Source of the DNA: a virus
Taxonomy: Duplodnaviria > Heunggongvirae > Uroviricota > Caudoviricetes
Length of the DNA stretch: 23,456 nt
Reading direction: 5' to 3' (one strand)
IMG/VR virus record: IMGVR_UViG_2526164646_000006
Part shown: positions 17,012 through 22,449 of the stretch, piece by piece
How positions within the stretch are numbered: position 1 is the first letter of the stretch
Layout of the letters: the number at the start of each line of letters is the position of its first letter
Made by a program: the position numbers and the translations under genes
Notes under the pieces: model-generated
What the model was told of the DNA's origin: nothing
The model's database searches: none
Seen by the model: the letters and a program-made list of their open reading frames with translations, nothing else

Positions 17012-17196
17012 ACGCCACAATTCAAACGATACCAGAGCTTCTTATCCAGACACGAGGAAATCAGACCGAAGTGGCGAGGATGCTTTCCTGCGCAAGAGGA
17101 ACAGTGCTCAAGTACAACCGAGACAGCAAAGGCGAGCGTCACGTAATAGTTAACGGCGTCCTGATGGTCAAACAGGGCAAAAGGGGAAGGCCATGA
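17008..17196 (+). CDS. ninH: NinH-like small DNA-binding protein
   Basis: GNQTEVARMLSCARGTVLKY HTH-like segment. Confidence 0.6.
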   Translation: MNATIQTIPELLIQTRGNQTEVARMLSCARGTVLKYNRDSKGERHVIVNGVLMVKQGKRGRP

Positions 17197-17816
17197 GACT
17201 CGAAAGCGTAGCTAAATTTCATTCGCCAAAAAGCCCGATGATGAGCGACTCACCACGGGCCACGGCTTCTGACTCTCTTTCCGGTACTGATGTGATGGCT
17301 GCTATGGGGATGGCGCAATCACAAGCCGGATTCGGAATGGCTGCATTCTGCGGTAAGCATGAACTCAGCCAGAACGACAAACAAAAGGCTATCAACTATC
17401 TGATGCAATTTGCACACAAAGTATCGGGGAAATACCGTGGTGTGGCAAAGCTCGAAGGAAATACTAAGGCAAAGGTACTGCAAGTGCTCGCAACATTCGC
17501 TTATGCGGATTATTGCCGTAGTGCCGCGACGCCGGGCGCAAGATGCAGAGATTGCCACGGTACAGGCCGTGCGGTTGATATAGCCAAAACAGAGCAGTGG
17601 GGGAGAGTTGTTGAGAAAGAGTGCGGAAGATGCAAAGGTGTCGGCTATTCAAGAATGCCAGCAAGCGCTGCATATCGCGCTGTAACGATGCTAATCCCAA
17701 ACCTTACCCAACCCACCTGGTCACGCACTGTTAAGCCGCTGTATGACGCTCTGGTGGTGCAATGCCACAAAGAAGAGTCAATCGCAGACAACATTTTGAA
17801 TGCGGTCACACGTTAG
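17193..17816 (+). CDS. Q: Q late antiterminator, lambda type
   Basis: 207-aa translation beginning MRLESVAKFHSPKSPMMSDSPRATASDSLSGTDVMAAMGMAQSQAG... essentially as recalled for lambda Q. Confidence 0.95.
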   Translation: MRLESVAKFHSPKSPMMSDSPRATASDSLSGTDVMAAMGMAQSQAGFGMAAFCGKHELSQNDKQKAINYLMQFAHKVSGKYRGVAKLEGNTKAKVLQVLATFAYADYCRSAATPGARCRDCHGTGRAVDIAKTEQWGRVVEKECGRCKGVGYSRMPASAAYRAVTMLIPNLTQPTWSRTVKPLYDALVVQCHKEESIADNILNAVTR

Positions 17817-18249: not shown

Positions 18250-18573
18250 ATGAAGATGCCAGAAAAACATGACCTGTTAGCCGCCATTCTCGCGGCAAAG
18301 GAACAAGGCATCGGGGCAATCCTTGCGTTTGCAATGGCGTACCTTCGCGGCAGATATAATGGCGGTGCGTTTACAAAAACAGTAATCGACGCAACGATGT
18401 GCGCCATTATCGCCTGGTTCATTCGTGACCTTCTCGACTTCGCCGGACTAAGTAGCAATCTCGCTTATATAACGAGCGTGTTCATCGGCTACATCGGTAC
18501 TGACTCGATTGGTTCGCTTATCAAACGCTTCGCTGCTAAAAAAGCCGGAGTAGAAGATGGTGGAAATCAATAA
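18250..18573 (+). CDS. S: holin S with dual-start motif
   Basis: [34 protein letters not shown]...; Met1 and Met3 starts. Confidence 0.95.
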
Positions 18574-19033
18574 TCAACGTAAGGCGTTCCTCGATATGCT
18601 GGCGTGGTCGGAGGGAACTGATAACGGACGTCAGAAAACCAGAAATCATGGTTATGACGTCATTGTTGGCGGAGAGCTATTCACTGATTACTCCGATCAC
18701 CCTCGCAAACTTGTCACGCTAAACCCCAAACTCAAATCAACAGCAGCCGGACGTTACCAGCTTCTTTCCCGTTGGTGGGATGCCTATCGTAAGCAGCTTG
18801 GCCTGAAAGACTTCTCTCCGAAAAGCCAGGACGCTGTGGCACTGCAACAGATTAAGGAACGTGGCGCTTTACCGATGATTGATCGCGGTGATATCCGTCA
18901 GGCAATCGACCGTTGCAGCAATATCTGGGCTTCACTGCCGGGCGCTGGTTATGGTCAGTTCGAGCATAAGGCTGACAACCTGATTGCAAAATTCAAAGAA
19001 GCTGGCGGAACGGTCAGAGAGATTGAGGTATGA
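18557..19033 (+). CDS. R: endolysin R (lytic transglycosylase)
   Basis: [49 protein letters not shown]... Confidence 0.95.
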
Positions 19034-19467
19034 GCAGAGTCACCGAGATTATCTCCGCTCTGGTTATCTGCATCATCGTCTGCCTGTCATGGGCTGTTAA
19101 TCATTACCGTGATAATGCAATCGCCTACAAAGAGCAGCGCGATAAAGCCACATCCATCATCGCTGATATGCAGAAGCGTCAACGTGATGTAGCTGAACTC
19201 GATGCCAGATACACAAAGGAGCTTGCTGATGCTAACGCGACTATCGAAAGTCTCCGTACTGATGTCTCTGCTGGTCGTAAGCGCTTGCAAATCGCCGCCA
19301 CCTGTGCAAAGTCAACGACCGGAGCCAGCGGCATGGGCGATGGAGAAAGCCCAAGACTTACAGCAGATGCTGAACTCAATTATTACCGTCTCCGAAGTGG
19401 AATCGACAGGATAACCGCGCAGGTTAACTACCTGCAGGAATACATCAGGACGCAATGCCTTCGATGA
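19030..19467 (+). CDS. Rz: Rz i-spanin
   Basis: N-terminal membrane helix then coiled-coil; contains embedded Rz1. Confidence 0.9.
19229..19414 (+). CDS. Rz1: Rz1 o-spanin lipoprotein, embedded in Rz in the +1 frame
   Basis: AAGGAG RBS; lipobox VSAC; proline-rich mature region. Confidence 0.85.
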
Positions 19468-19607
19468 TAGCGATAATTTTACTCATCATCCTTCACATCT
19501 GGCTCTGTAGACAGGGTGGTGATCACTTCTGGAGTGAATCCAGATTAAACATCTCATTGCTGATGCTTGATATTGAGCATCTGGCGCGCGGTAAGGGGCT
19601 GCGTTGA
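19464..19607 (+). CDS. small hydrophobic ORF (47 aa) overlapping the Rz stop
   Basis: [14 protein letters not shown]... begins at ATGA overlap with Rz. Confidence 0.25.
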
Positions 19608-19848
19608 GATAAGAGCCAGTTCATTACAAAGCCTATCTACTGGTGGGCTTGATAATGAAACCGGAATTTATTCTGGGCAACCAGTTACGGCAGTACCGCG
19701 AAACAACCCAAGCCAGTAAGTGGGGAAATAACACTGGCAGCCACTGAAAGATGAACCTCCAGCCTTATGGCAAAAAAGATTCTTTGTGGTGGCGGACTGA
19801 TGGAAAGACATCCGCTGAATCGATGATAAACAAGTGGAAGAGGTTGCG

Positions 19849-20022
19849 ATGGTTTCCGTGAACAAAGATCCGAAGGAAGGCGTTGAATACATCACTGGTG
19901 CTGATGGTGTGAAAAGACCAATGGCTTATTACAAAGCGGCTGAAGAGAGGGCAAGAATAGAAAATCCCCCTAAATGCGGATCATTTTTCGACATGCTGAA
20001 TCTTCAACAATGGAAGTTGTGA
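19849..20022 (+). CDS. small hypothetical protein (57 aa)
   Basis: ATG at 19849 with AAGAGG-like RBS. Confidence 0.3.
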   Translation: MVSVNKDPKEGVEYITGADGVKRPMAYYKAAEERARIENPPKCGSFFDMLNLQQWKL

Positions 20023-20161
20023 ACAATTAACAGGTCGCTCAGGTGGCCTTTTTTATTGCCATCACAAAAGCCATTCCCTACAGAGTGGCTTTGATAATGG
20101 CTTATACCCTACACGGGATAACTTAACTGATATCCCTTTTAACGGATAAACGGAGCCAACA

Positions 20162-20404
20162 ATGGCAGAGATTATTCCCATGACTGAAGAACAGAAATTC
20201 CAGTTAGAGATTTACAAACTGGTCATGAACCAGAACGCAGCCGCGGAGGAAGCATTTCAATTCATTGGCACTGACGAACTGAAGCTTGAGCTATTCAAAA
20301 TTCACTTCCAGTCAGGCGGCGCGAATTCAGATATCACGATCCGCACATTCGAAGCGGTGCGTAAATCGAAGGAAGCGTTAGACCTGTTCACTACCGGAGC
20401 ATAA
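20162..20404 (+). CDS. hypothetical protein (80 aa)
   Basis: ATG with GGAG RBS 7 nt upstream. Confidence 0.5.
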   Translation: MAEIIPMTEEQKFQLEIYKLVMNQNAAAEEAFQFIGTDELKLELFKIHFQSGGANSDITIRTFEAVRKSKEALDLFTTGA

Positions 20405-20483
20405 ACATGGCAACTCAAGGTTTCGACAACCCATCCAAATTCCGCGATGAATGGGATAAGCAAGCAGAAGGGAAATAATCAAT

Positions 20484-20972
20484 ATGGCAGCACCAAAGGG
20501 CAACCGATTTTGGGAGGCCCGCAGTAGTCATGGGCGAAATCCTAAATTCGAATCGCCTGAGGCGCTGTGGGCTGCTTGTTGTGAATACTTCGAGTGGGTG
20601 GAAGCTAACCCGCTATGGGAGATGAAGGCGTTCTCGTATCAGGGTGAAGTGATACAAGAGCCTATCGCCAAGATGCGAGCGATGACCATTACCGGCCTCA
20701 CTCTGTTCATTGATGTGACGCTTGAAACATGGCGCACATATCGCCTGCGAGAAGATTTATCTGAAGTCGTTACGCGAGCAGAGCAGGTCATCTACGATCA
20801 GAAATTCTCTGGCGCAGCCGCTGACCTTCTCAACGCTAACATCATCGCCCGTGATTTGGGCCTCAAAGAGCAGTCGCAAGTTGAAGACGTGACACCTGAT
20901 AAGGGAGATCGCGATAAGCGACGCTCTCGTATCAAGGAGCTATTCAACCGTGGAACTGGACGCGATTCTTGA
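20484..20972 (+). CDS. terminase small subunit, P22 gp3-like
   Basis: 162 aa, the same length as P22 gp3 as recalled; immediately upstream of and overlapping the large terminase. Confidence 0.8.
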
Positions 20973-22449
20973 TAACCTGAGCGATGAAGAGCAAATCGAA
21001 TTGCTCGAGCTACTCGAAGAAGAAGAGAACTACCGGAACACACACCTGCTATATGAATTTACGCCATACAGCAAACAGCGTGAGTTCATCGACGCCGGGC
21101 ATGACTATCCAGAGCGATGTTTTATGGCTGGTAACCAGCTTGGTAAGTCATTTACTGGTGCTGCTGAAGTCGCGTTTCACCTTACCGGGCGTTATCCGGG
21201 AACAAAAGGCTATCCGGCAGATGGTAAATATGGCGGGGAGTGGAAAGGTAAGCGTTTCTATGAGCCTGTTGTCTTCTGGATTGGTGGCGAGACAAACGAG
21301 ACTGTAACTAAAACGACTCAACGCATCCTGTGCGGTCGTATCGAAGAGAATGACGAGCCAGGCTACGGTTCCATACCGAAAGAGGACATCATTAGCTGGA
21401 AGAAGTCTCCTTTCTTTCCGAACCTTGTTGATCATCTTCTGGTTAAGCATCACACGGCTGATGGCGTTGAAGATGGCATTTCAATCTGCTACTTCAAGCC
21501 ATACTCGCAAGGCCGCGCTCGCTGGCAGGGTGACACAATCCACGGCGTGTGGTTTGACGAAGAGCCACCATACAGCATTTATGGCGAAGGTCTTACCCGT
21601 ACCAACAAATACGGGCAATTCTCAATTCTGACGTTTACCCCGCTGATGGGGATGTCTGACGTTGTTACCAAGTTCCTGAAGAATCCAAGCAAGTCGCAGA
21701 AAGTGGTCAACATGACCATCTACGACGCTGAGCACTACACAGACGAACAGAAAGAGCAAATCATCGCATCTTATCCTGAGCATGAGAGAGAGGCGCGTGC
21801 TCGCGGTATTCCTACGATGGGTAGTGGTCGAATCTTCCAGATACCGGAAGAGACGATTAAGTGTCAGCCGTTCGAGTGTCCTGATCACTTCTACGTAATT
21901 GGCGGTATGGATTTCGGATGGGATCACCCACAGGCGCAGGTTCAGCTTTGGTGGGATAAGGAGGCAGACACAATCTACGTTTCACGCGTGTGGAAGGCGA
22001 AAGAAAAGACAGCCGTTCAGGCGTGGGGAGCCGTTAAATCATGGGCGCATAAAGTGCCAACCGCATGGCCTCATGATGGAAACCAGCACGAGAAGGGCGG
22101 CGGTGAGCAGCTCAAAGGGCAGTATGCAGATGCTGGATTTATGATGTTGCAGGAGCATGCGACATGGCCTGATGGCGGTAACGCTGTTGAGCCAGGCATC
22201 ACTGAATTGCGCGACATGATGCTCGATGGTCGCTTCAAAGTATTCAATACCTGTGAGCCATTCTTTGAGGAGTTCCGCCTCTATCACCGTGATGAAAACG
22301 GGAAGATCGTCAAGCTTAACGACGACGTGCTATCCGCCGTTCGCTATGCATACATGATGCGCCGCTTCGCAAAAATGATGCGCGACATCAAAAAACCAAA
22401 AGAGAAAAAGATACCAGCCCCAATCAGGCCCATCGCACGGAGAACTTAA
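20950..22449 (+). CDS. terminase large subunit, P22 gp2-like
   Basis: 499 aa, the same length as P22 gp2 as recalled; ATPase and nuclease regions in translation. Confidence 0.9.

Follow-up and report, generated by a model that had tools for sequence, protein, structure and literature searches.

A probable array of exchangeable small-gene cassettes between the lysis and packaging genes of a P22-like prophage

We analysed a 23,456-nucleotide (nt) stretch of DNA from a P22-like (Lederbergvirus) prophage (IMG/VR record IMGVR_UViG_2526164646_000006; the whole stretch is referred to as the window), and in it the interval that separates the lysis gene Rz from the small terminase gene (terS). This interval is an ordinary instance of the variable accessory region long known to separate lysis from packaging genes in P22-like phages, and on balance is best read as an array of exchangeable cassettes forming an accessory region of the late operon. 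An earlier reading of the window made without database searches (the sequence-only reading) had placed about 1 kb of short open-reading frames (ORFs) here, and the interval measures 1016 nt from the Rz stop (19467) to the terS ATG (20484), with the listed plus-strand ORFs of 47, 57, 80 and about 23 codons all present. ORFs of 20–80 codons occur by chance in all frames throughout the window, so that the mere presence of those listed is no evidence for genes. We compared the interval with ~120 related loci, taken from phages in GenBank, from genomes of E. coli and from IMG/VR; most of these loci are 93–100% identical and share common ancestry. The patterns of substitution and of insertions and deletions (indels) in these loci show ORFs B, C and D, as designated below, to be conserved predicted protein-coding genes on the late-operon strand, and likewise mark 19608–19833 as non-coding DNA, owing to 1-nt indels at several positions in many relatives. 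Two predicted hairpins in the interval, H1 and H2, are shown by the same kind of comparison to belong to a single family with compensatory base changes. This family and the 23-codon ORF D, which lies between a DUF2560 gene and terS, lack annotation in the records we inspected and may be new.

Slots, breakpoints and cargo of the interval

Along the late strand the order of elements is Rz, segment S1 (ORF A), slot 1, H1, linker S2, slot 3, H2, a third hairpin (H3) with a Shine-Dalgarno sequence, the DUF2560 gene (ORF C), slot 4 and terS. Slot 1, from ORF A to H1, is empty in the window and is occupied in relatives by 550–1200 nt carrying an Rha, KilA-N or Tad2-like gene. Slot 3 contains ORF B and its terminator here, and elsewhere is empty (23 nt) or contains Gp49/66, a 23-amino-acid (aa) ORF of the HK544 type, or combinations. 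Slot 4 contains ORF D here, and elsewhere a 37-nt spacer or a 59–63-aa orf59c/hkbN gene. Dozens of slot combinations occur among the ~120 loci, and BLAST mapping places the recurrent breakpoints between them at 19622–19630, at 19812, at 20057–20061 or 20083, and at 20243. The first of these is the 5' arm of H1, which is the join point of the Rha and KilA-N cassettes in relatives, the second is the right end of S2 and the left edge of slot 3, and the right edge of slot 3 is formed by H2, which always lies 59–105 nt upstream of the DUF2560 start. Where slot 1 is occupied (L001, L020 and L090), ORF A does not run directly into H1; a strong intrinsic terminator, AGCCTCGCATTCGCGGGGCTTTTT, comes just after its stop codon, and the 9-nt sequence CATTACAAA stands at both ends of the inserted cassette.

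Synteny with related P22-like and lambdoid phages, which the sequence-only reading had proposed as a check, describes a variable accessory region, and its expectation of accessory genes at this position was borne out, the relatives carrying Rha, KilA-N, Gp49/66, GIY-YIG, HNH, Tad2-like and Acb2/Tad1-like genes. A Tad2-like domain protein (PF11195, 86.6 bits) is encoded in the same slots by phage Huey (L004, 1190–1687), as is an Acb2/Tad1-hairpin protein (PF24729, 68.9 bits) by a Serratia prophage (L129, 2371–2649), and with this cargo the interval is, in P22-like phages, a hot spot for accessory and anti-defence genes. Tad1, Tad2 and Acb2 are described as sponges for immune signalling molecules (PMC10680739).

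The arrangement in the window is found in other E. coli prophages, for example in strain MS14385 (98% identity), where the PGAP annotation lists the 50-aa, 61-aa and DUF2560 proteins as hypothetical. Nearest among known systems are the homologous intervals of P22 and Sf6. Phage P22 (BK000583) has an equivalent interval at the same position and strand and between the same flanking genes, which reads 15/Rz1, rha, orf25, orf80, orf59c and gene 3. It resembles the window in orf80 (96% DNA identity to ORF C), in the right half of S2 (S2 positions 66–191) and in a hairpin of the H2 type, and differs in having rha in slot 1, another sequence in slot 3, orf59c in place of ORF D, and neither ORF A nor ORF B. 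In Sf6, gene 65 is ORF A and gene 67 (an hkbM-like DUF2560 gene) is ORF C, and both hairpins and S2 are present, whereas slot 3 contains gp66 (Gp49/66), a 63-aa gp68 (hkbN-like) replaces ORF D, and terS is of a different type. HK620 carries the counterpart pair hkbM/hkbN, of which hkbM is DUF2560.

The shared elements extend to the HK97-like siphoviruses HK97, HK544 and mEp234, which have S2, the hairpins, the DUF2560 leader and the first 27 DUF2560 codons, followed by the HNH gene gp74. In these phages (HK544, L008; mEp234, L009; HK97, L213) the leader is joined to the first 27 codons only (PHROG 23132), a part equivalent to 20061–20243 of the window. What follows is sequence from upstream of the HNH endonuclease gp74, so that a recombination junction lies inside the DUF2560 ORF.

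The small genes

Three of the products, which the sequence-only reading could not recognise, turned out to belong to catalogued, uncharacterised families (DUF2560, PHROG 11822 and PHROG 5425). Searches of Pfam, NCBIfam and PADLOC with ORFs A, B and D and the spurious ORFs gave no useful match, DUF2560 being the sole exception in the interval.

ORF C (20162–20404, plus strand, 80 aa) is a DUF2560 protein, which scores 143.3 bits with PF10834 (cut-off 25), its residues 5–76 matching profile positions 1–72 of 72, and has a GGAG Shine-Dalgarno sequence 8 nt upstream. P22 orf80, HK620 hkbM and Sf6 gp67 are members of the same family, which comprises 90 clusters. Variable sites in ORF C are distributed 22/10/46 over the three codon positions, and the protein alignments of ORFs B and C reach down to ~60% identity. 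The DUF2560 profile, run against 1.84 billion representative proteins, recovered no more than the family itself, in 69 clusters, essentially all of them stand-alone proteins of 75–90 aa; fusions to a GDSL lipase, an aldolase and cadherin repeats were rejected, as they look like assembly or low-complexity artefacts. The gene is near-universal in P22-like phages, and it was seen just upstream of the small terminase gene in P22, Sf6, Gally, E212, Serratia, Shimwellia and Proteus loci. The product is predicted to be all-helical, with four helices in an AF2 model built from the family alignment (pLDDT 59). A literature search found no functional information on DUF2560, orf80, hkbM or the boundary sequences discussed below, the original HK620, Sf6 and Casjens & Grose papers lying outside its scope.

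ORF D (20407–20478, plus strand, 23 aa) starts 2 nt past the DUF2560 stop and ends 5 nt before the terS ATG. In the best 80 IMG/VR contigs kept from a search the peptide is identical throughout, with three variant DNA sequences and four substitutions, all synonymous. A diverged 23-aa copy (61% identity) lies upstream of DUF2560 in HK544 and Emek, and the cores of the two forms differ by three synonymous codons versus one non-synonymous. Homologues of the same length (MA.QGFD.P..FREELDKSIPK.) are found in Proteus and Providencia phages, behind an intrinsic terminator and a GGAG Shine-Dalgarno sequence, and Cronobacter phage ES2 has a related ORF downstream of its Q gene. A distant relationship to DUF2740 (PF10872) is possible on sequence grounds: the profile scores 13–15 bits against ORF D, below the cut-off of 27, and four divergent copies of the peptide match profile positions 19–32 at this sub-threshold level.

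The close packing of ORF C, ORF D and terS suggests that the three would be translationally coupled, and one could go further and regard ORF D as a mere coupling device which hands ribosomes from DUF2560 to terS and whose peptide is functionless. The 2-nt and 5-nt gaps fit such a device, as does the 3' end of ORF D, GAAGGGAAATAA, the only Shine-Dalgarno-like sequence available to terS; moreover, two unrelated types of small terminase follow ORF D, and the junction falls exactly at the terS ATG. However, the peptide is conserved, with synonymous changes, in copies that lie away from terS (in HK544, in Proteus phage Pm34, where it directly follows Rz, and in Providencia), and ORF-less spacers of 37 nt precede the same terS alleles. 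We regard a functionless peptide as possible, if somewhat doubtful.

ORF B (19849–20022, plus strand, 57 aa, or 62 aa from a GTG at 19834) is what slot 3 carries in the present prophage. It matches PHROG 5425 (E 5e-42, residues 9–62 on profile positions 1–54 of 54), in a family of 16 protein clusters which reaches down to 61% identity in prophages of Yersinia enterocolitica. The start is conserved at ATG 19849, the core EGVEYI.G.D.VKRPM.YYK is invariant, variable sites fall 4/4/15 over the codon positions and all indels are of 3 nt. ORF B is a small soluble protein with no hydrophobic segment, and an AF2 model from the family alignment (pLDDT 67) has a beta-hairpin followed by two helices. Behind the gene, a terminator scan found an intrinsic terminator (20032–20055, plus strand) with a 7-bp stem, AGGTCGC-TCAG-GTGGCCT, followed by TTTTTT. 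The homologue in Yersinia P22-like prophages occupies the same slot and keeps the terminator, with a strengthened stem.

A role for ORF B as a host-interaction factor is plausible, and the small proteins of the interval might in general be non-essential host-interaction factors, possibly acting in counter-defence, rather than components of lysis or packaging. The more specific proposal, that ORF B (perhaps also DUF2560 or ORF D) is a late counter-defence inhibitor or sponge similar to Tad or Acb proteins, gains from the Tad2-like and Acb2/Tad1-hairpin proteins which occupy the same slots in Huey and Serratia, and from ORF B being small, patchy in occurrence and cassette-borne. It is countered by the lack of sequence or structure similarity to known anti-defence families, by late-operon timing, which would be unusual for early-acting inhibitors, and, for DUF2560, by a near-universal rather than patchy distribution in P22-like phages, and we consider it unlikely. 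The anti-defence genes in the slots of relatives make the 57-aa, 80-aa and 23-aa proteins reasonable candidates for phage–host conflict screens.

ORF A (19455–19607, plus strand, 50 aa, or 47 aa from a second ATG at 19464) overlaps the Rz stop by 13 nt at its start and has an AGGA Shine-Dalgarno sequence 6 nt upstream. It equals Sf6 gene 65 (gp65) and the PGAP protein WP_001139681.1, and matches PHROG 11822 over its whole length (E 3.9e-38, 1–50 of 50), in a family of 66 clusters, almost all from E. coli. Its variable sites fall 9/7/16 over the codon positions, with 13 synonymous versus 22 non-synonymous changes, and its N-terminus is hydrophobic and has no basic n-region. Judged from these features, ORF A is possibly coding, with a putative membrane micro-protein as product, and the standing of PHROG 11822 as a real protein family is uncertain. 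The ORF A module is missing from about half of the related loci, where a different 310-nt segment replaces it. In E. coli MFDS1019527 (L006, 1198–1500) a 100-aa ORF which is not annotated lies in this segment, between Rz and H1. It has a hydrophobic stretch, no Pfam match and a stop codon which abuts the hairpin, and the same 310-nt module is present in N7, HK544 and mEp234.

The sequence-only reading had also listed a weak minus-strand ORF. A 75-aa frame is indeed present on the minus strand (19668–19895) and is spurious as a gene, neither frame nor extent being conserved: both its extent and its phase vary from locus to locus. Three further small ORFs in S2 (19567–19719, 19643–19747 and 19751–19861) were rejected on account of 1-nt indels and inconsistent frames.

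Hairpins and conserved linkers

H1 (19620–19659, plus strand) begins 12 nt after the ORF A stop and has an outer stem of 7 bp (TTCATTA/TAATGAA) and an inner stem of 9 bp, with a 2×2 internal loop (CA/GA) between them. H2 (20058–20101, plus strand) has the outer stem GCCATCA/TAATGGC, the same CA/GA internal loop and a 10-bp inner stem. The two were found as inverted repeats I4 and I1, respectively, and share a design of a ~7-bp outer stem with an ATTA/TAAT core, the CA/GA 2×2 loop, a 9–10-bp inner stem and a terminal loop of 3–6 nt. A covariance model scores them at 58.6 (H1) and 55.8 bits (H2) on the plus strand, versus 12.4 and 14.4 bits on the minus strand, and a scan of the 23-kb window returned exactly these two copies, both in the interval. 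On 100 related loci the model found 157 copies, every one of them on the gene strand and located between Rz and DUF2560; these include copies in Yersinia and Providencia loci which had been left out of model building. Whole-genome scans gave one copy in P22, two in HK97 and none in lambda, always in this interval.

When seven copies are aligned with plain MAFFT, 97.5% of cells pair and changes on both sides are seen in 8 of the 17 pairs, whereas sliding the 3' partners by 1–3 columns lowers pairing to 30–52%. Over a larger set of 61 distinct copies, pairing holds in 94.8% of cells. Changes on both sides which keep the helix distinguish the alleles of E212/N7/mEp234, of P22, of a Serratia prophage and of the Proteus phage Brookers. 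One nearly invariant pair is U.G, which on the other strand would be an A.C mismatch and so is more simply explained by an RNA element. The copies begin 0–24 nt after the preceding stop codon in at least seven contexts (the window, L006, L121, L123, L126, L129 and HK97). The annotated P22 orf25 (L125, 1830–1907) overlies a hairpin of the H2 type (covariance match 1809–1852, 64.7 bits), and is probably not a gene.

By analogy with processing signals in other phages, H1 and H2 most likely act in messenger RNA (mRNA). The intercistronic RNase III hairpins of T7 have a helix of ~17–19 bp with a small conserved internal loop and follow stop codons in the phage transcript. H1 and H2, with 7 + 9–10 bp and a conserved 2×2 CA/GA loop, are compatible with such sites, a likeness which is not diagnostic, and they differ from the T7 sites in having no sequence relation to them and in their loops, which in T7 are larger and asymmetric. 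They are not Rho-independent terminators, as the stems are followed by GAUAAUG... with no U-run, and they were absent from the terminator scan. The hairpins may be thought of as candidate punctuation of the late mRNA, serving 3'-end protection or RNase III-like processing.

Two non-coding stretches of the interval are also highly conserved. Linker S2 (19660–19812) has 1-nt indels at several places, and its right ~100 nt (19711–19812) are nearly invariant, with a nucleotide diversity of 0.014; the DUF2560 leader (20102–20161) has a diversity of 0.010, and the adjoining coding DNA has 0.036 (DUF2560) and 0.024 (the 3' end of Rz). S2 is present in both P22-like and HK97-like phages. Neither S2 nor the leader gave an Rfam match, a promoter-like site or covariation, and RNAalifold found no covariation in the S2b part of the linker because the sequences are too similar. 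Over the whole interval Rfam gave no match at the gathering score, and the best hits of a permissive search (E 0.8–3.8) are noise. Single-sequence folds have z-scores of −3.65 and −3.59, largely due to the hairpins. A minimum free energy fold contains H3 (20115–20140, plus strand; GGGATA-N10-TATCCC followed by TTTT), a weak terminator-like element in the nearly invariant DUF2560 leader that is missing from the Serratia leader. In Sf6-type loci (L003, 1172–1228, and many IMG/VR loci) S2 contains an insertion of 57–58 nt at window position 19670/19672, which carries the palindrome ACAGATTTAACTAAATCTGT and comes in two sequence variants.

As conserved DNA, the hairpins together with S2 and the further linker S4 could provide the homology for cassette swaps by phage recombination. 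Conserved boundary sequences at the junctions of lambdoid mosaics have been put forward as a mechanism of exchange (PMC3029335). They resemble the present elements in being short, conserved, non-coding DNA between modules at recombination junctions, and unlike them H1 and H2 form strand-specific hairpin structures, show compensatory changes and are confined to a single interval. In the Sf6 record, the only boundary-sequence feature in the stretch shown lies inside Rz, and the hairpins are not annotated as such. If the hairpins turn out to be processing or recombination signals, they would offer a concrete mechanism for the mosaic exchange and expression of cassettes in lambdoid late operons. 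The strongest form of this idea is a dedicated exchange scaffold common to P22-like and HK97-like phages, in which RNA hairpins and linkers would both punctuate the mRNA and guide swaps of promoter-less mini-genes, several of them anti-defence, with ORF D a true micro-protein of Enterobacterales phages and ORF B a new counter-defence factor; taken as a whole, we hold it to be distinctly unlikely.

Alternatively, H1 and H2 could act as DNA, either as recombination sites in a folded single strand, similar to attC, or as targets of a site-specific enzyme. Each cassette would then consist of an ORF and a hairpin, the hairpins do stand exactly at the edges of variable slots, and genes for HNH and GIY-YIG endonucleases are found in the same interval of relatives. 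The resemblance to integrons extends to the combinatorial, promoter-less small ORFs in one orientation, each followed by an imperfect inverted repeat; unlike integrons, however, the interval has no integrase, attI or attC core motifs, attC cores bear no relation to the hairpin consensus ATTACA...GATAAT, and no integrase or other recombinase gene lies in the interval or next to it. The U.G pairs would fit a single folded top strand, but RNA is the simpler reading, and long flanking homology in S2 and S4 suffices for exchange of the Erf or Red type, a simpler route than integron-like sites. A DNA-site role is very unlikely in our judgement, and action in mRNA remains the preferred reading of the hairpins.

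Late expression and comparison with lambdoid morons

In P22 the equivalent interval lies behind P-late and the gp23-antiterminated t-late, which suggests that the genes of the interval are made late in lytic growth. In the window they would likewise be transcribed from P-late by polymerase modified by gp23 (Q), reading through the ORF B terminator and the hairpins. A consensus scan of 19000–21000 found no sigma70-like plus-strand site which could serve ORF B, though weak or activator-dependent promoters could escape such a scan.

Several points weigh against reading the interval as an array of exchangeable cassettes in the late operon. The compensatory events in the hairpins which are independent are few, ~4–6 allele types, since the compared loci are closely related, and one of the hairpin alignments (A7) was fitted to the covariance model. 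H1 and H2 have no U-tract, and only analogy speaks for their role as RNase III sites or stabilisers. The reading does not account for how extremely S2b and S4b are conserved, and the coding signal of ORF A is not significant. Foldseek, PDB sequence searches and PADLOC gave no functional match for the proteins of the interval: ORF C has no PDB match by sequence or by Foldseek, and ORF B no PDB relative by Foldseek or by profile search (Foldseek at E≤0.001 with low-confidence models in both cases). Finally, the counter-defence reading of ORFs B–D takes its argument from guilt by position alone.

The sequence-only reading had likened the position of the interval to that of lambda bor, and in this it was correct, bor lying directly after Rz in lambda (46459–46752, minus strand). 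The content is another matter, as the supported genes lie on the late strand and have no Bor Pfam match, no lipobox and no sigma70-like plus-strand promoter. Lambdoid morons such as lambda bor and HK97 gp15 resemble the present genes in being small extra genes among late genes, present or absent among phages and equipped with their own terminator; ORF B shows both this presence/absence pattern and a terminator. A classical moron, by contrast, is expressed in the prophage state from a promoter of its own, and here no such promoter was found, the orientation is that of the late operon and there is no similarity to Bor.

It is highly improbable on this evidence that any of the ORFs is a moron of lysogenic conversion in the manner of bor, expressed from its own promoter in the repressed prophage and altering host surface or fitness. 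The shared genomic position, the terminator of ORF B and its presence or absence among similar phages, and the hydrophobic N-terminus of ORF A would all suit such a gene. Weighing more heavily, the genes are co-oriented with the late operon and bor is opposite to it, no Bor or other Pfam match apart from DUF2560 was found for any ORF of the interval, the minus-strand one included, no sigma70-like plus-strand promoter was detected in 19000–21000, and a hydrophobic segment is lacking in ORF B. Nor does ORF A have a lipobox; the residues I-W-L before Cys18, read from the translation, do not form one.

That the whole interval is a conserved non-coding spacer with chance ORFs, the outcome which the sequence-only reading had named as refuting it, holds for 19608–19833 and 20023–20161 and not for the rest, and is scarcely credible as a general account in spite of the short ORFs in every frame, the non-coding 19608–19833 and the weak signal of ORF A, given the third-position bias and codon-sized indels of ORFs B and C, the conservation of both proteins to ~60% identity in other genera, the purely synonymous variation of ORF D with its same-length homologues across genera, and the Shine-Dalgarno motifs at correct spacing before all four ORFs.

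The interval is flanked by genes of the lysis and packaging modules, all on the plus strand. Upstream, a Q-type antiterminator gene (17193–17816) is followed by a holin gene, an endolysin gene and then Rz (19030–19467, PF03245), within which Rz1 is embedded; downstream, the gp3-type terS (20484–20972, PF16677 GP3_package) is followed by the large terminase gene (TerL). Slot 3 of P22 (L125) contains an unannotated minus-strand ORF, MSDIEQKIAHLEDIIEKMQLD (~1947–2261), behind a hairpin, AAAAAAGCCGCTTACTTAGCGGCTT, and a plus-strand fragment, MALTDKQEMFCHEYLIDLNATQAAIWA (2245–2433), which we take to resemble the N-terminus of a Terminase_2-type small terminase and which is possibly a terS remnant. 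The endolysin ORF of the window (18557–19033) is without a Pfam match at E≤0.001, and its close homologues are named glycoside hydrolase family 24/104 by PGAP.

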